Shown here in pieces: positions 42,777-52,261 of a DNA stretch of 64,000 nt. The notes below the pieces were generated by a model. The model was not told the origin of the DNA, did not search any database, and saw nothing but the letters and a program-made list of their open reading frames with translations. The translations under genes and the position numbers were made by a program. Location of the stretch: the UHGV virus genome UHGV-0299153, one strand, 5' to 3'. Each line of letters opens with the position of its first letter. Within the stretch, counting starts at the first letter, position 1. The stretch comes from a virus.

Positions 42777-44060
42777 TTATTCCAGCACCTCCCAAGTGTC
42801 TGGGTTAACATTTCGGACGCAGATACCGACAGGGAATTGGTAGTTGTTGTCTTCTGTCCTTGCTTGATATTTGAAGGTGACAAACTTGCCGATCATTTCC
42901 TGCATTCTGTCATAGCTACGCTCCTCGTGCGTACCTTTCATCTTCATTTTAACAACAATACCTTCCTTGTCAACACAGATAAGAACACCTTCATCATTCT
43001 TATCTTTCTCAACGTCAATAACTTTCACCTCTGCGTCGTTGAACTTTTTCCATTTCAATGCTTCAGATGTTCTCTGACCGTACTCATATTTACCACAGAA
43101 GTTACGCATAATGGTACCTTCATATCCTTCGGACATGAATATACCAACAGATTCTTCGCAATGATCAACTGTGTACGCAAGCTCTGCGTCAACAACCTTG
43201 ATATGGTCAAGCATCAGAGTGGTAACGGTATCCTCTGCATCCATAAGATCCTTGCAGCGTCCAGACTCTGTTTCGGGATCCCACCACACCTTGTCGCTAG
43301 GAATATCAAAAATGTGATACTCCAGATCGTAGCTACAGTACCCACCGTAACGCAAATCATCACGAACAGGCTCAACATCGACAGGAATATCTACCTTGTT
43401 GAAGTTTTTGTATGTTGATAAGCCGGACTTAATTGCGGCATGACGGCGTTTTTTATCTGCCTCATAGTCTTTATCGATCTCGGCCTGAATCTCTTCCTGT
43501 GTGCGCCACCGTTTAGCAAGAGACACTATTTTCTGCAAAGGAAGACCATGAATGTATAGTTCCCCATCAAGTTGTTTAATCCCAGTGGTAGAATGGAAAG
43601 AACGAAGTTGCTCTAAAAGCTTTCCTTGAATAGGGTAGGACTTATTACCACGGGAAATAAATTTAGGCTCACCATTTTGGAAAACAACAAGCAGACGAAG
43701 GCCATCTAACTTACGCAAGATCCAGCAAGGTAGTTTAAGTGCCTTGCCACGCTTCAGGTAGTCATGCACCAGCATGGGTAAAAGATCAACACCCTGCTCG
43801 CAATCTTCCATGTTTTCAACATACCCCAGACGGACTTGTTTTTCCCACTTGCTGATAGCCTCAAGCTCGGCCTGTTGCTCAGCTGTAGTCTCATTGGCAC
43901 GACCTACGTTCTTAGGTGTGCATACCGTCTCTTTGTACTGCAATTTACCGTCAAGCTTGCCAAACTCTACGATAACCTTTTCGCCATCAGTGAATACTTT
44001 CCACTGTTGGTAGCTGCCATCTTTGTTCAGTGCGTACAGTGTTGTTTTGATTTGATGCAT
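42777..44060 (-). CDS. ATP-dependent DNA ligase
   Basis: Motif I KxDG (LRKLDGLRLLVV); 427 aa. Confidence 0.65.
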   Translation of the reverse strand: MHQIKTTLYALNKDGSYQQWKVFTDGEKVIVEFGKLDGKLQYKETVCTPKNVGRANETTAEQQAELEAISKWEKQVRLGYVENMEDCEQGVDLLPMLVHDYLKRGKALKLPCWILRKLDGLRLLVVFQNGEPKFISRGNKSYPIQGKLLEQLRSFHSTTGIKQLDGELYIHGLPLQKIVSLAKRWRTQEEIQAEIDKDYEADKKRRHAAIKSGLSTYKNFNKVDIPVDVEPVRDDLRYGGYCSYDLEYHIFDIPSDKVWWDPETESGRCKDLMDAEDTVTTLMLDHIKVVDAELAYTVDHCEESVGIFMSEGYEGTIMRNFCGKYEYGQRTSEALKWKKFNDAEVKVIDVEKDKNDEGVLICVDKEGIVVKMKMKGTHEERSYDRMQEMIGKFVTFKYQARTEDNNYQFPVGICVRNVNPDTWEVLE

Positions 44061-44329
44061 TACTCGGCCTCTTCCTTAAAAATTTTAAACATCTCTTCTT
44101 TACTCATTACCAACCAGTCTCCCATAAAGTCAACTAGCCAATCTCCCTGGTACAGGACAAGGTTACCAAAAGGCTCGACAAGCTCACACATGCGACGAAG
44201 ATCTCTGGTCCGAACAGGTGACGATGTAAACACACCTGTATCAATCCACCGTTGCAGATCAGATACTGATGAAGAGCTTCCGTCAAACTGGTGGGCTTCT
44301 ACAGGTTTAGCAAGATTAAATAACGGCAT
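44060..44329 (-). CDS. hypothetical protein (89 aa)
   Basis: ORF track. Confidence 0.5.
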   Translation of the reverse strand: MPLFNLAKPVEAHQFDGSSSSVSDLQRWIDTGVFTSSPVRTRDLRRMCELVEPFGNLVLYQGDWLVDFMGDWLVMSKEEMFKIFKEEAE

Positions 44330-44624
44330 TGCAGTCCTCCTTCTGTAGTAGGTCTTTTATAGGATAAACAAGTAAGTGTGGATCGGAATAACGTATAGTC
44401 TTATTCTGCCACACTATGAACTTTATTACAACCAAATTTACAATATCTTTATCACCATGTAGCCCAACACACACATTTGTCCATATTTTGTGGTTGAAGA
44501 TCTTGCTATCGATGTAGATTTTAGTGTCAAACTTATCTTCCATTCTACCTATAAGTTTGATCAGCTCCTTCATCTGGTCGCCAAACACAGCATCTTTTTC
44601 AAGATTTCTGGAATGCTTGTACAT
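44316..44624 (-). CDS. hypothetical protein (102 aa)
   Basis: ORF track. Confidence 0.5.
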   Translation of the reverse strand: MYKHSRNLEKDAVFGDQMKELIKLIGRMEDKFDTKIYIDSKIFNHKIWTNVCVGLHGDKDIVNLVVIKFIVWQNKTIRYSDPHLLVYPIKDLLQKEDCNAVI

Positions 44625-44686
44625 AACTAACTACCTCGCTGCATACTTTCCATAATAAGTAAAGCCGGGATTACCCGGCTATGTTG

Positions 44687-45400
44687 TCAAATATACTCTG
44701 TTACATCCTTGAAGCTCGAAGGCTTCATGATCTTACCTTTACTGTCAAGGAATATGATAACTTTATTACCGTTGTAGAACTCTTCCTTAGCAACAAAACC
44801 TTCGTAGCGACCATCAAAGCGTCGCTCAAGATCTTTAATCTCCAACTCTATGAGTTGTTCAGCAGGCATATCTGCACTGGCACCGTGTGAATACCGTAGA
44901 TGGTTTACCCGTGCAAACTTGCTGTCATTAGATTTGAGAACCTTACGCATCATCCCGCACACATCGCCGCGAAGCTGGAACAGCAAAGCTGTTGACAACT
45001 CCGCTAAGCGGTAAGCTGACGCTCTTTGCTTGGATGTGTTTTTCGCAGCGATCAGTGTATCATAGAACTCACCGATCTTGAACTTAAGACCTCGTGGATT
45101 ATCAAACAGGTTTGACCACTTTTCGTGATTGTCATTAACGAGATAAGCTGCATAACTTGTGACAACGTGAAGATCGCAGGCCTCTTTTAGCAGGTGATCT
45201 CCACCATCACCTTTCTCCAGCTCTTCCAAAACCTCATTGAACTCTTCCTCAATGAAGCTAAGCTGTAATTCGAATGGTGTGTATGATTTTTTCACTTTAG
45301 CTGCCACACGGTTCCAGTTTTCCACCCAGTTGGCAGACCAAAGGTAGTTTTCAGGCTGAGACAGTTTTTCCAGGTTGTCGATCAGTTTAGTATTTAGCAT
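44687..45400 (-). CDS. hypothetical protein (possible MazG-like NTP pyrophosphohydrolase, weak)
   Basis: Acidic EEEFNEVLEELE...DLH block loosely resembles MazG/HisE metal-binding helices. Confidence 0.35.
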   Translation of the reverse strand: MLNTKLIDNLEKLSQPENYLWSANWVENWNRVAAKVKKSYTPFELQLSFIEEEFNEVLEELEKGDGGDHLLKEACDLHVVTSYAAYLVNDNHEKWSNLFDNPRGLKFKIGEFYDTLIAAKNTSKQRASAYRLAELSTALLFQLRGDVCGMMRKVLKSNDSKFARVNHLRYSHGASADMPAEQLIELEIKDLERRFDGRYEGFVAKEEFYNGNKVIIFLDSKGKIMKPSSFKDVTEYI

Positions 45401-45414
45401 TAAAAGGTCACCTC

Positions 45415-46176
45415 TTACAGTTCCATAAAGTTTTCTACAGTTTCAATAAATGCTTTATCAGAGAAAGCGTCAACAGCACCGTTAAACCATACAGGGATCC
45501 CGCGATCCTCATATTGATAAAGGTCGCTACGTGAAATGCCACTTCCATCTGCACTCTGCGAATCATACTTGTTTACAATCAGCAGTTTTGTGCCTTTACA
45601 AGTAGCAGGAAACAATTCCCAGTTAAAATTAATAACTGTGTTAGAACAACCTACCAGGATCACCATATCATTGCTGGTAAGAGATGTCAACAGGTCATAC
45701 ATGTCTGTATACTTAGGAGCAACCTCACCGAAGAACACTACATTGGGCTTAACCCAGGTATACTTGCCTGTATCTACCTCCGTGTATCCGATATTTTTAA
45801 TTACATCATTACCTTCAGCATCTTCGTAGGTGATTTCAGGCAAATACCCGTGGACATGTAAAATATCTTCATGTTTTACACCAGCACGCTCCAGCAAATC
45901 ATCTACATTGGTAGTAAGGTTGATCACACGACCATACCAGCGGGAATACCACTCAGCGATCCGAAGATGTGCAAGGTTAGGATCAACACTGCCCAGAGCT
46001 ACACGACGTGCATTGTAAAAGTCATGCACCTTATAGTAGTTCTTGGCAAAGGTGTGGATGTTGCACACCTCATCGATGCTGAAATTCTCCCACATTGCAG
46101 TGCTACCAGATCGGAAAGTGGGAATACCAGATTCAGCGCTCAAACCAGCACCGGAGATAATAATCAGTCGTCGCAT
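45415..46176 (-). CDS. Sir2-family (sirtuin) NAD-dependent enzyme
   Basis: GAGLSAESGIPTFR, TTNVDDLLERAG, VHG (catalytic His), VVFFGE, VLVGCS; no CxxC zinc-ribbon pairs. Confidence 0.8.
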   Translation of the reverse strand: MRRLIIISGAGLSAESGIPTFRSGSTAMWENFSIDEVCNIHTFAKNYYKVHDFYNARRVALGSVDPNLAHLRIAEWYSRWYGRVINLTTNVDDLLERAGVKHEDILHVHGYLPEITYEDAEGNDVIKNIGYTEVDTGKYTWVKPNVVFFGEVAPKYTDMYDLLTSLTSNDMVILVGCSNTVINFNWELFPATCKGTKLLIVNKYDSQSADGSGISRSDLYQYEDRGIPVWFNGAVDAFSDKAFIETVENFMEL

Positions 46177-46184
46177 AAGTGTCC

Positions 46185-46535
46185 TCAGTAGATGTTTTGT
46201 TTAATCTCTATTCCAAACTTCTTGAATGAGTCAGCAGCAAGCATAAATTTACGAGCTGCCGATGGATTAGAAGTATGCACGAAAATAATCACGTTGTCAA
46301 TAAGTGGTGGCTTTCCGAATACAAGTTTCTCCTCTAGCGCAGAGAAGCAGTCGTACCCTTCAAGCACTTCACCTAGGTCATTGTCAAAATACCACTCAGA
46401 TACGCGTCTGTAGAGCTTTCTCTTATCATTAAGAAAATCCATAAACTCAGAAGAATTCTTTAGCCACAGAGCGTCTGGGAGTCCATAATCTGACGGATCT
46501 CTAAAATCATCAAGCCACACAATCCACTTCTTCAT
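46185..46535 (-). CDS. hypothetical protein (116 aa), possible receiver-like fold
   Basis: ORF track; KWIVWLDDFRDP N-terminus; 4-nt overlap with RNA ligase gene. Confidence 0.45.
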   Translation of the reverse strand: MKKWIVWLDDFRDPSDYGLPDALWLKNSSEFMDFLNDKRKLYRRVSEWYFDNDLGEVLEGYDCFSALEEKLVFGKPPLIDNVIIFVHTSNPSAARKFMLAADSFKKFGIEIKQNIY

Positions 46536-47467
46536 TGCATATAGTCCTCGTTGTGGAAATAGTAGTCCAGTATCTCACGACGCTCCTGCTCTAATAAGCA
46601 ATTCCACACATCTTCTGTACAGTTGCTACGAATAAATTTTACCATACCGTAAAACTCTTCGTCAACACGTTTAAAGATATCATCATCCCAAATCTTCCAA
46701 GCTTTACCCCTCATTACGGCCTTCCGTGCCAGATAGTATGGAGACTTGATCTTCAGCTGCAGATCATAAGGGTAGTAAGGCTTACGAATCATATACCCTT
46801 CACCTCTTGTTTCTGCAGCTAATTCTTTTGCATAGCTGAACGGAATTTCACGCACAGTGTGAGGACGTTTTGCACCAAGGTATTTGGCAATCCCATCTAA
46901 AGCTGCTTCTGGTAGCATTATTCCAGAATCATTATATCTGCAACCTATCAAATATGCGCCATGATCTTCCTGAACAATATGCGGATCTGAAGGGTGGCAA
47001 ATTTCAAACATGAATGTCATGTTTTCATTGCCCATAACCTTCTTGATAAGATCTAAATTACCACATTGCTCCCTGATGGTTTCTTTTGCGAGGTTACAAT
47101 ATGGGGAATCAAGAGACCCGGTTGTTGAGAACAATAGTTCACCTTTATGAGATGATACCACACCGAGGAATCCGTTCTTTTTCTCTACCGCAGTAACAAG
47201 TTTACTGTCCGGTAGGTTGGTGGAGTTTTCTCCTAAGTTGAATACTTTTGTGAAAGGCCATGCCACAACATTCCCCTCATTGCCAACAACAATACCTCGG
47301 CACTCCAGTAAACGCGGAGACAAATGCCACAGATTGTTGTAGAATACTTTTCTGGCATATTTATAGATCTTTAATCCAAGATCTGGATAATACCGACTGG
47401 TTACAAGACCTTTGTCTACTAGGTCATCTGCATTAAAATACTTCATCATACGTTCCTCATTTGTCAT
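46532..47467 (-). CDS. RNA ligase (nucleotidyltransferase superfamily; putative)
   Basis: Candidate motif I EKKNGF (KxNG), motif IV FMFEICHP, motif V LQLKIKSPYY; adjacent to kinase/phosphoesterase pair. Confidence 0.5.
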   Translation of the reverse strand: MTNEERMMKYFNADDLVDKGLVTSRYYPDLGLKIYKYARKVFYNNLWHLSPRLLECRGIVVGNEGNVVAWPFTKVFNLGENSTNLPDSKLVTAVEKKNGFLGVVSSHKGELLFSTTGSLDSPYCNLAKETIREQCGNLDLIKKVMGNENMTFMFEICHPSDPHIVQEDHGAYLIGCRYNDSGIMLPEAALDGIAKYLGAKRPHTVREIPFSYAKELAAETRGEGYMIRKPYYPYDLQLKIKSPYYLARKAVMRGKAWKIWDDDIFKRVDEEFYGMVKFIRSNCTEDVWNCLLEQERREILDYYFHNEDYMQ

Positions 47468-47510
47468 TTTGTCAGTCTATCCTGACACACAAATAACCTA
47501 GTGTCAACAC

Positions 47511-47539
47511 TTGAAATTAACAAAACAGTTAGGTATACT
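47511..47539 (+). promoter_or_regulatory. sigma70-like promoter at divergence point
   Basis: TTGAAA-17 bp-TATACT, 29 bp upstream of ATG 47568. Confidence 0.5.
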
Positions 47540-47567
47540 ATCATTAAAATTAAAACGGAGGATTGCT

Positions 47568-47978
47568 ATGTCTAAAATGCTATATATCGTGCGTGGTCTG
47601 CCAGGGTCTGGCAAATCAACACTGGCAAATGCGCTATCTTTAGAAGGTCTGTATCCACATTTTGAGAACGACATGTTCTGGTATGACGATGACGGCAATT
47701 ACAACTGGGATGCAAGTAAAGTAACACTCGCAGCAAAATGGTGCAAAGATAACGTAGAAGATATGATGCGTATGGGATACGACCGTATCGTGGTAAGCAA
47801 TACGTTTACAAAAGAAAAACATGTGCAGGAATATGTTGACATGGCAATCAGTCACGGGTATAGTTATACCGTGATCGTGGTTGAAAACCGCCACGGTAAT
47901 AAAAGCATTCATGATGTTCCAGACAAGGTTGTGGATCGTATGGAACGCCAGCTTAAAAACTGCATTAAACTTAAATGA
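47568..47978 (+). CDS. P-loop polynucleotide kinase-like protein
   Basis: N-terminal LYIVRGLPGSGKSTLANAL P-loop typical of polynucleotide-kinase (PNK)-type kinases; ACGGAGG SD. Confidence 0.55.
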   Translation: MSKMLYIVRGLPGSGKSTLANALSLEGLYPHFENDMFWYDDDGNYNWDASKVTLAAKWCKDNVEDMMRMGYDRIVVSNTFTKEKHVQEYVDMAISHGYSYTVIVVENRHGNKSIHDVPDKVVDRMERQLKNCIKLK

Positions 47979-47985
47979 GGAATGT

Positions 47986-48540
47986 ATGAAATACTTTGTA
48001 ACAAGCGATACACACTTTCTCCACCAGCGGGTCATGGAGTTTGATTCATGTCAAAAACACAGATCTCAGTATGATCACAATCTTGACAGTATGAATGCGG
48101 GAATCATCACCAAGTGGAACTCTGTTGTGTCACCTGCAGACACTGTGTTCCACTTGGGAGATATTGCATGCACTAATGATAAGAATATCAACAAATTGCT
48201 CCCAGATATTCTAAATATGTTGAACGGACATATTATTCTTGTTCGTGGCAACCATGACACAAGGACGACTGTCAAAATTATGAAAGAGTTCGGTCATGAG
48301 GTTGTAGATTATTACGAGCTTCGCCACAACAAGAATTTGATCTGTATGAGCCATTACCAGTTTGCAAAGTGGAACAGAAAGCCTCACGGATCAGTCCAAC
48401 TGTTCGGTCATGCTCACGGAACCACACAACAGTTGTTTGGCAGGCAGCTTGATGTCGGTTGGGATGTGTGGGGGAGACTCTTACCATTAGAAGAGGCATA
48501 CCGTATTGCAATGAGTTTTGATATTGACAGCAGGGAGTAA
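47986..48540 (+). CDS. calcineurin-like metallophosphoesterase
   Basis: TSDTHF (DxH), LGDIA (GD), VRGNHD (GNHD/E), GHAH blocks. Confidence 0.75.
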   Translation: MKYFVTSDTHFLHQRVMEFDSCQKHRSQYDHNLDSMNAGIITKWNSVVSPADTVFHLGDIACTNDKNINKLLPDILNMLNGHIILVRGNHDTRTTVKIMKEFGHEVVDYYELRHNKNLICMSHYQFAKWNRKPHGSVQLFGHAHGTTQQLFGRQLDVGWDVWGRLLPLEEAYRIAMSFDIDSRE

Positions 48541-51447: not shown

Positions 51448-51522
51448 GCCCTGTTAGCTTAGTGGATAAAGCAGCGGCCTTCTAAGCCGTTGACACTGGT
51501 TCGAGTCCAGTACGGGGTGCCA
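51448..51522 (+). tRNA. tRNA-Arg (anticodon TCT)
   Basis: Cloverleaf folded by hand: acceptor GCCCTGT/ACGGGGT, anticodon loop CTTCTAA, T-arm ACTGG-TTCGAGT-CCAGT, encoded CCA. Confidence 0.75.
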
Positions 51523-51526
51523 AATT

Positions 51527-51613
51527 GGGGAGTTATCCCGTAGAGGTAGCGGTGTAGACTGTAAATCTATTGTCATTGCGACTCGGGTGGTTCGACTCCA
51601 CCACTCCCCACCA
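51527..51613 (+). tRNA. tRNA-Tyr (anticodon GTA), type II
   Basis: Acceptor GGGGAGT/ACTCCCC, anticodon loop CTGTAAA, long variable arm, T-arm GGTGG-TTCGACT-CCACC, encoded CCA. Confidence 0.8.
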
Positions 51614-51728
51614 AATTTATATTTTTTAGATGCATAAATAATACAGATAATGGCATTGATATTTATCGTCGTTTATACTAGTCACTAACTGCTCGAAAAT
51701 CAGTGTCATTATCAGTATAATTTATAAA

Positions 51729-51819
51729 GGAGGGTAGGGAGCAATGGTGCTCAAGCGGTCTTGAAAACCGTCCCGTTGAGGATGACTCGATGATGGTTCG
51801 ATTCCATTACTCTCCGCCA
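51729..51819 (+). tRNA. tRNA-Ser (anticodon TGA), type II
   Basis: Acceptor GGAGGGT/ACTCTCC, anticodon loop CTTGAAA, long variable arm, encoded CCA. Confidence 0.75.
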
Positions 51820-51917
51820 CATTGTTGACCTTGTAATTAAGCGAAAGCCGGAAGCAGAACCGGATTATCAAATGTTACAGTCGTCATCGCCGACTAGCAA
51901 CATGGTCAACATATTGA

Positions 51918-52014
51918 GCTAGGTAAGCCCTTTGGCAAGGGCGAGGATTTTTAATCCTGAAAATAGACGAGGTAGTCGTTGAATACATAGGTGGTTCGAT
52001 TCCACCGCCTAGCA
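51918..52014 (+). tRNA. atypical tRNA-like gene (anticodon loop TTTTTAA, apparent UUU; about 30-nt variable region)
   Basis: Acceptor GCTAGGT/GCCTAGC, D-arm GCCC-TTTGGCAA-GGGC, T-arm GGTGG-TTCGATT-CCACC; only a 4-bp anticodon stem; no encoded CCA. Confidence 0.45.
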
Positions 52015-52021
52015 CCTTTTT

Positions 52022-52097
52022 GCTGATGTAGCACAATTGGTAGTGCAATTGATTTGTAATCAATAGGTTGCGGGTTCAAGTCCTGCCATCAGCACCA
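52022..52097 (+). tRNA. tRNA-Thr (anticodon TGT)
   Basis: Acceptor GCTGATG/CATCAGC, anticodon arm ATTGA-TTTGTAA-TCAAT, encoded CCA. Confidence 0.75.
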
Positions 52098-52098
52098 T

Positions 52099-52173
52099 GG
52101 CCCTGTAGCTGGAAGGTTCAAGCAAGCGACTCATAATCGCCAGACGGTGGTTCAATTCCACCCAGGGCCACCA
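52099..52173 (+). tRNA. tRNA-Met (anticodon CAT; could be an Ile-lysidine type)
   Basis: Acceptor GGCCCTG/CAGGGCC, anticodon loop CTCATAA, T-arm GGTGG-TTCAATT-CCACC, encoded CCA. Confidence 0.75.
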
Positions 52174-52184
52174 AATAGTAGATA

Positions 52185-52261
52185 CTCCGCGTAGCTCAGC
52201 TTGGTAGAGCGCCTGATTTGGGATCAGGAGGTCGAGTGTTCGAATCACTCCGTGGAGACCA
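52185..52261 (+). tRNA. tRNA-Pro (anticodon TGG)
   Basis: Acceptor CTCCGCG/CGTGGAG (one GU), anticodon arm CCTGA-TTTGGGA-TCAGG, T-arm GAGTG-TTCGAAT-CACTC, encoded CCA. Confidence 0.75.

Follow-up and report, generated by a model that had tools for sequence, protein, structure and literature searches.

The phage neighbourhoods closest to the locus described here were classed as neighbourhood type 2, with Escherichia phage V5 and Proteus phage Mydo as the prototypes, in section 3.7.3 of a survey by Iyer, Burroughs, Anantharaman & Aravind (Viruses 14:1977, 2022). There, the V5 sirtuin was proposed to be KptA/Tpt1-like and to remove a 2'-phosphate from RNA, cREC, NADAR and Nudix proteins were treated as processors of ADP-ribose derivatives, and the known ADP-ribosylating sirtuin systems were described as having a Macro partner. 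The gene, the cluster and the tRNA-mending idea were already published in 2022, and our analysis adds no new object to them, the gene being annotated and the hypothesis in print.

Phage T4, a virulent coliphage with its own tRNAs, counters PrrC by means of Pnkp and Rnl1, which supply an Rnl1-type ligase, a 5'-kinase and a 3'-end phosphoesterase. To our knowledge, this repair pathway has no sirtuin, cREC or MazG-like partner. The tRNA ligation pathway of fungi and plants combines Trl1, which joins ligase, kinase and CPDase in a single protein, with Tpt1, whose reaction comprises an attack on C1'' of NAD+ and then a transesterification through O2''. In our reading, these 2 steps map one-to-one onto the sirtuin mechanism. 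In the sirtuins SIRT5 and CobB, a Y-x-x-R pair binds acidic acyl groups. Below, we compare the phage sirtuin and its neighbours with each of these systems.

Results

The window, by which we mean the whole 64,000-nt stretch of DNA that was analysed, derives from a Vequintavirus (an rV5-type phage of E. coli) and is 98-99% identical to many deposited genomes; the Sir2 gene is already annotated in more than 100 near-identical ones, and databases describe its product as a deacetylase. The gene is third in a four-gene operon on the minus strand, in the order T4 Rnl1-type RNA ligase (46532..47467, 311 aa), cREC (46185..46535, 116 aa), sirtuin (45415..46176, 253 aa) and MazG-like pyrophosphohydrolase (44687..45400, 237 aa). 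The sequence-only reading of this DNA had pointed out a 4-nt overlap between the ligase gene and the 116-aa gene, which we observed at 46532-46535; gaps of 8 nt and 14 nt follow, and this tight spacing is consistent with the co-transcription suggested in the same reading. A terminator-like GC-rich hairpin, AGCCGGGTAATCCCGGCT with a T-rich tail (44663..44680, minus strand), lies at the operon end, 7 nt past the stop of the 237-aa gene, and phage Murica carries a terminator annotation at the equivalent position.

Two genes, one for a polynucleotide-kinase-like protein and one for a metallophosphoesterase, are transcribed divergently from the ligase operon. As read from the sequence, the 100-nt intergenic region (47468..47567) contains plus-strand promoter-like hexamers at 47511-47544, which are putative and represent consensus matches only. 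The cluster is situated within a long leftward block that also encodes a DNA ligase, RNase H, exonucleases, ribonucleotide reductases and thymidylate synthase, with the 427-aa ATP-dependent DNA ligase (42777..44060, minus strand; Pfam DNA_ligase_A_M and DNA_ligase_OB_2) as the constant syntenic partner of the cluster. All 6 components of the type 2 neighbourhood (sirtuin, T4-like ligase, cREC, nucleotide kinase, MazG-superfamily pyrophosphatase and calcineurin-like phosphoesterase) are found within 44687-48540. Nothing substantive separates this locus from the V5 and Mydo clade of the survey: the gene set is shared, and there is no Macro partner. A Pfam scan gave no Macro match among 10 flanking proteins, and the near-identical genome EmilHeitz has no gene annotated as KptA, 2H, Macro or Nudix, and no further dUTPase.

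We are almost certain that the protein under study is this sirtuin in this operon. Pfam SIR2 (PF02146) was matched from position 1 to 178 of its 180 positions, with an E-value of 1.1e-27 and a score of 97.6 bits where the cutoff is 24, and PHROG 2162 ('Sir2') was matched with E=5e-108. The closest solved structures by sequence were E. coli CobB (1s5p, E=7e-21) and SIRT5 (1e-20), and an AF2 model (pLDDT 90) superposed on CobB with a TM of 0.75-0.83 (Foldseek). The Sir2 assignment of the sequence-only reading is borne out by these matches, which lie well outside chance expectation, and the fold held under profile, structure and alignment comparison, with the equivalents of the catalytic His and Asn kept. 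The signature blocks quoted in that reading are present as well, although one was misquoted, the sequence being VILVGCS and not VLVGCS.

The motifs fall at residues 9-22 (GAGLSAESGIPTFR), 88-99 (TTNVDDLLERAG), H109-G110 and 146-151 (VVFFGE). Invariant among 20 homologs were G9-A10-G11, S16-G17, F21-R22, Y54/R57/R58, T89-N90-V91-D92-D93, H109-G110, K143-P144-N145-V146, S178-N179 and N202. In common with E. coli CobB and human SIRT5, the phage protein has the Rossmann core, the GAGxSxxSGIPxFR loop, the Asn/Asp pair, the His-Gly, the FGE loop and the FYNxRR acidic-acyl motif; its class III Y54-x-x-R57 lies in a FYNARR sequence that aligned to FYNARR of CobB and FYHYRR of SIRT5, and the motif is present in most of 149 distant representatives. 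In contrast to those enzymes, the phage sirtuin has no Cys4 zinc site, carries Thr89 where the TQN(I/V)D motif canonically has Gln, and is encoded in an RNA-repair rather than a metabolic context. The protein is acidic, with a net charge of -12 (family pI 4.6-5.8; the pI of the CobB fragment used for comparison is 5.3). The NCBIfam equivalog cutoffs for CobB were not reached (NF001753, 122 bits against 243; NF040867, 104 against 320; NF001755, 92 against 318).

The two CxxC pairs of the zinc ribbon are absent, as had been noted from the sequence: the protein has only 3 Cys (C38, C177 and C192), no CxxC, and no Cys between H109 and K143. At the position of the CobB zinc module, the AF2 model has a beta-hairpin (110-128) and a third strand (142-146), with no metal-binding Cys. 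The Cys4 site was found in 0 of 120 close homologs, 69 of which have no Cys in the H109-K143 region, 49 have one and 2 have two, whereas 74 of 149 more distant cluster representatives have 4 Cys. Loss of the zinc module is clade-wide. By these criteria, the product of 45415-46176 is a genuine sirtuin of class III (CobB/SIRT5-like) origin that has kept the predicted full NAD-cleaving catalytic centre but lost the Cys4 zinc site. In the searched parts of the survey cited above, we found no mention of the clade-wide Cys4 loss together with the Gln-to-Thr change, of the retained YxxR, of the acidic pI or of the chromosomal relatives in Marinobacterium.

The 116-aa protein, which had been described as receiver-like, is indeed a cREC protein (cyclic-phosphate-processing receiver domain) and a predicted metal-independent phosphoesterase: it matched cREC_REC (PF20274) with E=9.1e-14 and 52.3 bits against a cutoff of 27, and PHROG 1479 with 6e-33. 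A receiver-type acidic pocket was invariant in 7 homologs (D9, D10, D51-N52-D53, H87, S89-N90-P91 and K96), and the neighbourhood contains no histidine kinase partner for it. The 237-aa protein had been called unknown in the sequence-only reading; we assign it instead to the all-alpha NTP pyrophosphohydrolase superfamily (MazG/dimeric dUTPase), with a small C-terminal beta extension. Its only sequence-profile match was PHROG 671 (5e-22); it fell below the cutoff for Pfam PRA-PH (13.7 bits against 21.3) and had no NCBIfam match and no PDB sequence match. In its AF2 model, the four helices are arranged as in NTP-PPases, the acidic motifs ExxE...ExxD for metal binding are present, and a dimeric dUTPase is the best fold match; the model is of moderate quality because a word-index search found only 16 close relatives.

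The RNA ligase, encoded by the first operon gene, matched RNA_lig_T4_1 (PF09511, 9.3e-15) and PHROG 562 (4e-65), and its translation contains motif I (KKNG), motif IV (EGYMIR) and motif V (LKIKSP). On the plus strand, the P-loop polynucleotide-kinase-like protein (47568..47978, 136 aa) matched Pfam AAA_33 (1.7e-10), PHROG 2071 (3e-58) and PHROG 505, 'polynucleotide kinase' (5e-10), and a GGAGG ribosome-binding site precedes its ATG at 47568. The calcineurin-like metallophosphoesterase (47986..48540, plus strand, 184 aa), a candidate 3'/2',3'-phosphate end-healing enzyme, matched Metallophos_2 (1.5e-6), Metallophos (5.4e-6) and PHROG 547, 'phosphoesterase' (2e-51). As in T4, these genes provide a virulent coliphage that has its own tRNAs with an Rnl1-type ligase, a 5'-kinase and a 3'-end phosphoesterase. 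Unlike in T4 Pnkp, kinase and phosphatase are encoded separately here, and the phosphatase is of the calcineurin-like type instead of HAD.

We also examined the contexts of homologs in other phages and in bacteria. Vequinta/Mydo-like phages (~135-150 kb) have equivalent genes in shuffled order, and in the Mydo-like phages L023-L027, L031 and L054 a DNA ligase gene comes directly after Sir2, with the stop and start codons overlapping. In T5-like phages, 2 small genes separate Sir2 from HAD_SAK_2, a 'Swiss Army Knife RNA repair' phosphatase, and in a marine phage HAD_SAK_2 is 2.3 kb from Sir2. A 607-kb megaphage encodes an Rnl1-type ligase 2 genes upstream of the sirtuin and a kinase-like protein downstream (hhalign probability 88.6), while a T4-like contig has the series Band_7, RlaP (an RNA-repair nucleotidyltransferase), Sir2 and NADAR. 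Genes connected with ADP-ribose or NAD adjoin homologs: NADAR and NAMPT at locus L082, NADAR at L146, and DUF4326 and Nuc_deoxyri_tr2 at L058. Such neighbours indicate an active NAD consumer. At L151, the homolog gene overlaps that of a nucleotidyltransferase/CoaE-type kinase fusion (Pfam CTP_transf_like and CoaE). For a group of ~150-kb phages (L032-L041 and L045), Pfam gave only DUF7275/DUF7277 and one distant metallophosphoesterase among the sirtuin neighbours, and hhalign comparison of 39 unknown neighbour clusters with the repair-gene clusters gave a single match, that of cluster c120 to the kinase.

In the aggregate, a link of the sirtuin to RNA-healing and to ADP-ribose/NAD genes is supported in several unrelated phage lineages, although conservation of the neighbourhood is partly synteny and not independent evidence, because much of it falls within one broad related phage group. 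The nearest cellular homologs, at 41-51% identity, are also zinc-less and are chromosomal in about 20 Marinobacterium species; none has RNA-repair genes beside it, the neighbours being metabolic or transport genes. Zinc-less homologs are present as single genes on the chromosomes of Marinobacterium, Haliea and other bacteria. Other large phages encode KptA: 98 phage records have KptA and 976 have a Sir2-clade homolog, and no record was shared between the 40 listed of the former and the 40 listed of the latter, which differ in genera and genome sizes.

Discussion

The sequence-only reading had raised NAD-dependent RNA end processing or ADP-ribose handling as a function for this sirtuin. The contexts found in several independent phage lineages favour that suggestion, which nonetheless still derives from gene order. 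From this context we infer, tentatively, a Tpt1-like mechanism, the likeliest single reading although somewhat less than an even prospect. A host anticodon nuclease would cut a tRNA to leave 2',3'-cyclic phosphate and 5'-OH ends; the 5' end would be phosphorylated by the kinase, the cyclic phosphate opened by cREC or the metallophosphoesterase, and the break sealed by the RNA ligase. The sirtuin would ADP-ribosylate the leftover 2'-phosphate with NAD+, releasing nicotinamide, in what would be the two-step chemistry of Tpt1/KptA on a different fold, and the by-product would be linearised and split by cREC and the MazG-like enzyme. The mapping of the 2 Tpt1 steps onto the sirtuin mechanism would explain the retention of His109. 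SIRT5 structure 4f56, that of the bicyclic intermediate, was among the structure matches.

In favour of the Tpt1-like mechanism, end-healing and sealing enzymes adjoin the sirtuin gene, EmilHeitz has no annotated KptA, and the reading agrees with that of Iyer et al. for phage V5. Separate phage genes match the logical parts list of the Trl1/Tpt1 pathway: an Rnl1-family ligase, a P-loop 5'-kinase, an NAD-dependent enzyme and, in cREC or the metallophosphoesterase, a candidate cyclic phosphodiesterase. The phage parts differ in being separate polypeptides, and the CPDase and 2'-phosphotransferase roles would fall to non-homologous folds. The folds of the sirtuin (Rossmann) and of Tpt1/KptA (ART) are unrelated, so that the phage protein could only be a functional analogue of KptA/Tpt1, a resemblance drawn from gene context alone. 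Against the mechanism, every residue for ordinary lysine deacylation, including Y54-x-x-R57, is intact; the protein is acidic, which is unexpected for an RNA-binding enzyme; and the kinase, metallophosphoesterase and Rnl1 could by themselves make up a full heal-and-seal route of the T4 kind, in which no 2'-phosphate is left over. Also, T5-like phages keep the sirtuin without a nearby Rnl1 ligase, kptA is already present in E. coli, and the Marinobacterium homologs have no RNA-repair neighbours.

A stronger form of the proposal, which we consider doubtful, is that the sirtuin is a true non-orthologous replacement for Tpt1/KptA and the first sirtuin to have an RNA 2'-phosphate, not acyl-lysine, as its physiological nucleophile. 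The catalytic His would then promote transesterification through O2'', and the pocket in which the conserved Tyr/Arg(Arg) bind acids might be re-used for the backbone phosphate. The mechanistic mapping and the pocket are our own suggestions, added to the hypothesis already in print. In such a scheme, cREC would be the cyclic phosphodiesterase, the MazG-like enzyme would split the ADP-ribose cyclic phosphate, and a coliphage would possess a complete yeast-style '2'-phosphate' tRNA ligation pathway made of unrelated folds. Should the proposed activity exist, it would define a new class of sirtuin reaction, with phosphate rather than acyl-lysine attacking NAD+, and a second, independently evolved way of removing 2'-phosphates when RNA is repaired. 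Virulent coliphages of wide occurrence (the rV5-like and T5-like phages and their relatives) would be spending NAD+ to keep tRNAs intact against host nucleases, which would bear on how phages evade defences that cleave tRNA and on why they are harmed by those that deplete NAD.

Since the class III motifs are intact and the Marinobacterium homologs have no RNA-repair neighbours, an ordinary deacylase role is possible, though on balance improbable: a CobB-like class III enzyme, tolerant of zinc-site loss, would use NAD to strip proteins of the host or phage of acetyl or acidic acyl groups. CobB and SIRT5 are the best sequence and fold matches; the NAD loop, N90, D92, H109, the FFGE loop and Y54-x-x-R57 are all invariant; the CobB fragment is likewise acidic; and the existing database annotation is that of a deacetylase. 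The zinc-less chromosomal homologs of Marinobacterium, Haliea and other bacteria, among metabolic and transport genes, agree with such a role, as does the position of Sir2 beside both ligases, with translational coupling to the DNA ligase gene in Mydo-like phages. In a variant of our own, the deacylase would protect the adenylate-accepting lysines of the adjoining RNA and DNA ligases from non-enzymatic acylation. CobB acts likewise on acetyl-CoA synthetase. Yet the protein scores far under each CobB equivalog cutoff, Thr replaces the motif Gln and the whole clade lacks the zinc module, no acyltransferase partner was found among the neighbours examined, and a recurrent linkage to RNA end-healing and to NADAR/cREC in unrelated phages is unexpected for a general deacylase.

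A further alternative, which we think unlikely, is an ADP-ribosyltransferase or NAD glycohydrolase acting on another target. Such an enzyme might cap RNA 5'- or 3'-phosphates, modify a base, or produce or break down a soluble molecule derived from ADP-ribose, with cREC, NADAR and the MazG-like protein as erasers or scavengers, in host takeover or as a counter to NAD/ADP-ribose-based immunity rather than in repair. Homologs adjoin NADAR, NAMPT, DUF4326 and Nuc_deoxyri_tr2 and overlap the nucleotidyltransferase/CoaE-type kinase fusion at the loci given above, a sirtuin with an ADP-ribose hydrolase resembles a writer/eraser pair, and cREC, NADAR and Nudix are listed as ADP-ribose-derivative processors by Iyer et al. 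(Viruses 14:1977). However, there is no Macro partner here, unlike in known ADP-ribosylating sirtuin-Macro systems, and the retained catalytic His favours a two-step reaction over simple transfer or hydrolysis. No defence-type Sir2 NADase (ThsA, DSR, Sir2-HerA) was matched: Pfam SIR2_2 gave only E=0.099 (13 bits against a cutoff of 24.5), and the sole PADLOC match amounted to 15.6 bits over 34 residues. Our literature search found no anti-defence or counter-defence report for the clade. We have accordingly rejected a defence or anti-defence Sir2 as the leading idea, and the earlier suggestion of interference with host NAD-based defences finds no support in these searches.

Least probable, in our estimation, is that the clustering has no functional meaning and reflects a shared early/middle 'nucleic-acid metabolism' block, the MazG-like protein being perhaps simply a dUTPase-type pool sanitiser. 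The composition of the leftward block would fit, as would the dUTPase fold match of the 237-aa protein in a phage for whose near relative EmilHeitz no other dUTPase is annotated; in T5-like phages and at loci L056 and L082, the sirtuin is as near NrdD as it is to any repair gene. Against this stand the tight operon, whose genes overlap or lie almost end to end before a single terminator, and the recurrence of differing healing enzymes (Rnl1, HAD_SAK_2, RlaP and cREC) beside the sirtuin in phages that are not syntenic.

Our literature search found no experimental study, biochemical or genetic, of this sirtuin clade; the 'phage Sir2' of a 2026 NARP3 paper concerns host Sir2-HerA, not this gene. 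Possible clients of the repair enzymes are the 7 phage tRNAs encoded at 51448..52261 on the plus strand (ARAGORN, with Rfam tRNA matches). One of these, the 97-nt tRNA-Lys(UUU) at 51918-52014, was considered as an intron-containing splicing substrate because ARAGORN gave a 4-base anticodon; we rejected it as such, since in the Rfam alignment this tRNA has no intron but an ordinary UUU anticodon loop together with a long variable arm.

The 253-residue protein as a zinc-less sirtuin

The product of ORF 45415-46176 (minus strand, 253 aa) had been assigned to the Sir2 family by a sequence-only reading, and database searches bear this out. The protein matched Pfam SIR2 with E=1.1e-27 (97.6 bits; cutoff 24) and PHROG 2162 with E=5e-108, and its nearest solved structures are both class III sirtuins, E. 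coli CobB (7e-21) and human SIRT5 (1e-20). An AlphaFold model, made with 20 homologs as input (mean pLDDT 90), aligned to CobB with TM scores of 0.75 (query-normalised) and 0.83 (target-normalised). Twenty phage homologs that share 49-61% identity with the window protein all keep its NAD loop unchanged (G9-A10-G11, S16-G17, F21-R22), along with N90, D92, H109-G110, K143-P144-N145-V146, S178-N179 and N202; the His/Asn equivalents, for whose loss we looked, are therefore kept.

The zinc ribbon is missing, as had also been claimed: there is no cysteine between H109 and K143, and none of 120 close homologs has more than 2 in this interval. Of 149 representatives taken from more distant clusters (50% identity), 74 have four cysteines there, mostly as two CxxC pairs. 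The four-cysteine representatives carry predominantly TQN(I/V)D, whereas zinc-less sequences mostly have Thr for Gln. In the model, a predicted beta-hairpin (110-128) and third strand (142-146) take the position of the CobB zinc module. The class III Y-x-x-R pair is retained (FYNARR in both the window protein and CobB, FYHYRR in SIRT5). The protein scores far under every NCBIfam CobB equivalog cutoff, and it did not match defence-type Sir2 models. As judged from its sequence, the protein is a zinc-less sirtuin with a complete catalytic centre.

Organization of the locus

The three ORFs named in the sequence-only reading were all found, on the minus strand. The 237-aa protein (44687-45400), previously taken as unknown, is MazG-like at the level of fold. 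The 116-aa protein (46185-46535) is a cREC domain (Pfam PF20274, 9e-14), as defined in a 2021 jumbo-phage paper by Iyer et al., with invariant receiver-type acidic residues D9, D10, D51 and D53. Upstream of it, on the same strand, a 311-aa RNA ligase of the T4 Rnl1 type is encoded at 46532-47467 with its ligase motifs intact. Because the ligase and cREC genes overlap by 4 nt, 8 nt separate the cREC from the sirtuin gene and 14 nt the sirtuin from the MazG-like gene, the final stop codon is followed by a GC-rich hairpin and T-rich tail (44680-44663, minus strand), and a terminator is annotated at the equivalent site in phage Murica, these four genes look like a single operon.

Separated from the operon by a 100-nt intergenic region, and on the opposite (plus) strand, are genes for a 136-aa P-loop kinase similar to polynucleotide kinases (47568-47978) and a 184-aa calcineurin-like metallophosphoesterase (47986-48540). 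An ATP-dependent DNA ligase gene (42777-44060, minus strand) lies 600 nt downstream of the operon terminator. Between terminator and DNA ligase gene (44060-44624, minus strand) are two hypothetical proteins of 102 aa (PHROG 7684) and 89 aa (PHROG 14585), for which no family assignment was obtained; both recur with the cluster in Mydo-like phages, in which the 89-aa protein has a homolog of ~155 aa.

More than 100 deposited Vequintavirus (rV5-like) E. coli phage genomes match the 4-kb region at 97-99% identity. The sirtuin gene is not new to databases, since most annotated records of these near-identical genomes name its product 'Sir2', 'NAD-dependent deacetylase' or 'sirtuin domain'. Window positions 44000-48000 are also ~99% identical to 18-25 'Campylobacter phage' records (including MG065653, MG065654, MG065666 and MG065676), whose host attribution or naming in GenBank looks doubtful.

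Genomic contexts of sirtuin homologs

We compared 58 viral loci, 80 genome loci and several metagenome contigs carrying sirtuin homologs (L-numbers below). Vequinta/Mydo-like phages (~135-150 kb) have the ligase, cREC, kinase, sirtuin, DNA ligase, MazG-like and phosphoesterase genes together in varying order, cREC being absent from three loci. In Mydo-like phages of ~145 kb (L023-L027, L031, L054), the stop codon of the sirtuin gene and the start codon of the ATP-dependent DNA ligase gene overlap (in L023, 8001-8777 and 8777-10078), which suggests translational coupling of the two; in the window, by contrast, three genes intervene.

T5-like phages have NrdD, sirtuin, two small genes and HAD_SAK_2, a 'Swiss Army Knife' RNA-repair phosphatase, in that order. 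A 607-kb megaphage has the sirtuin two genes downstream of an Rnl1-type ligase and upstream of a kinase-like gene. A T4-like metagenomic contig has Band_7, RlaP (an RNA-repair nucleotidyltransferase), sirtuin and NADAR in order, and a phage-like contig in a Bacilli MAG (L082) has NADAR, NAMPT, sirtuin, EndoVII and NrdD. DUF4326 and a nucleoside deoxyribosyltransferase-like gene accompany the sirtuin in a 279-kb phage. In a marine phage (L151, 7001-8888; L152, 531-4423), the sirtuin gene overlaps one for a 389-aa protein in which a cytidylyltransferase-like nucleotidyltransferase is fused to a CoaE-type (dephospho-CoA-kinase-like) kinase, and the gene for a 277-aa HAD_SAK_2 protein lies 2.3 kb downstream. 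The recurrence of such contexts in lineages without shared synteny ties the clade to RNA end-healing and ADP-ribose/NAD handling. Cutting against this link is a group of ~150-kb Escherichia phages (L032-L041, L045; e.g. ESCO5, nieznany), where the sirtuin ends a conserved gene run with no recognisable domains but DUF7275/DUF7277, and no RNA-repair gene was detectable nearby except a kinase-like ORF in L045.

T5-like phages, two ~86-120 kb phage contigs and the Bacilli MAG contig all carry an anaerobic ribonucleotide reductase gene (NrdD) at a distance of 1-4 genes from their sirtuin homolog (L003, 5515-8819; L056, 7959-11125; L082, 6989-10132; also L055).

The closest cellular homologs (41-51% identical) are chromosomal, zinc-less and carry an MTTNVDDL motif. 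They occur in ~20 Marinobacterium species (L063-L084) and a few other bacteria, such as Haliea (L075) and L148-L150, with Glu/Leu dehydrogenase, SNF symporter, 2-oxoacid:ferredoxin oxidoreductase and TRAP transporter genes as neighbours. No RNA-repair genes were found beside these chromosomal homologs, which tempers the RNA-repair reading; in L148-L150 a metallophosphoesterase gene lies directly 3' of the sirtuin homolog.

Possible functions

Iyer, Burroughs, Anantharaman and Aravind (Viruses 2022, 14:1977; PMC9503650) place most viral sirtuins in a clade of their own with links to RNA repair, and list three neighbourhood types. Gene, family, neighbourhood and hypothesis are already in databases and literature; we found no experimental work on this clade in the full-text literature. 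Added here are the clade-wide loss of the zinc site coupled to the Gln-to-Thr change, retention of the class III YxxR motif, fold-level placement of the 237-aa protein, the cellular zinc-less relatives, and further independent contexts (RlaP/NADAR, NAMPT, marine-phage HAD_SAK_2, megaphage Rnl1).

We tentatively favour the published reading, that the sirtuin removes RNA 2'-phosphate like KptA/Tpt1. The sequence-only reading, which proposed NAD-dependent RNA end processing, was correct in observation and reasonable in this leading interpretation; the substrate is the part that we infer. In Tpt1, an oxygen nucleophile attacks C1'' of NAD+, and ribose O2'' then attacks the electrophilic centre. 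In sirtuins, the conserved His promotes the second catalytic step. Both steps of Tpt1 thus have a counterpart among the two of sirtuin catalysis, which makes the chemistry plausible, and a Tpt1-parallel second step would explain the invariant His109. By a crude check, 98 phage records carry KptA and 976 the sirtuin clade, with zero overlap among the matches listed, which fits functional replacement of KptA. No KptA, 2H, Macro, Nudix or NAD-synthesis gene is annotated in the near-identical EmilHeitz genome.

Against 2'-phosphate removal, the deacylase motifs are wholly intact and the protein, like its family (pI 4.6-5.8), is acidic; the main rival is an ordinary protein deacylase, possibly serving the neighbouring ligases, which we regard as rather less than probable. 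Also against it, kinase, phosphoesterase and Rnl1 could already make up a pathway of the T4 type, after which no 2'-phosphate is left, and the host has its own kptA. Another role in ADP-ribosylation or with an NAD-derived metabolite, to which the NADAR and NAMPT contexts would be relevant, seems unlikely. That T5-like phages have no ligase near the sirtuin, and Marinobacterium homologs no repair context, speaks further against the 2'-phosphate reading; clustering without functional meaning, set beside the contexts recurring across lineages, is quite improbable.

Neighbouring tRNA genes

Seven tRNA genes lie 4 kb from the cluster, on the side opposite the DNA ligase gene. At 52126-52238 (plus strand), Rfam gave a weak hit to YrlA (Y RNA-like), with E=0.088 and 25 bits where the gathering score is 69; it overlaps tRNA-Met and tRNA-Pro and most likely reflects their tRNA-like structure, not a Y RNA. 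The 97-nt tRNA at 51918-52014 (plus strand), 4 kb from the RNA-repair cluster, is annotated 'tRNA-OTHER' in Murica and 'tRNA-Lys' in EmilHeitz. Its anticodon loop, UUUUUAA, identifies it as tRNA-Lys(UUU), a classic anticodon nuclease target; the 4-base anticodon given by ARAGORN is a misreading, and we rejected an intron, as the extra length is an unusually long variable arm (~26 nt).
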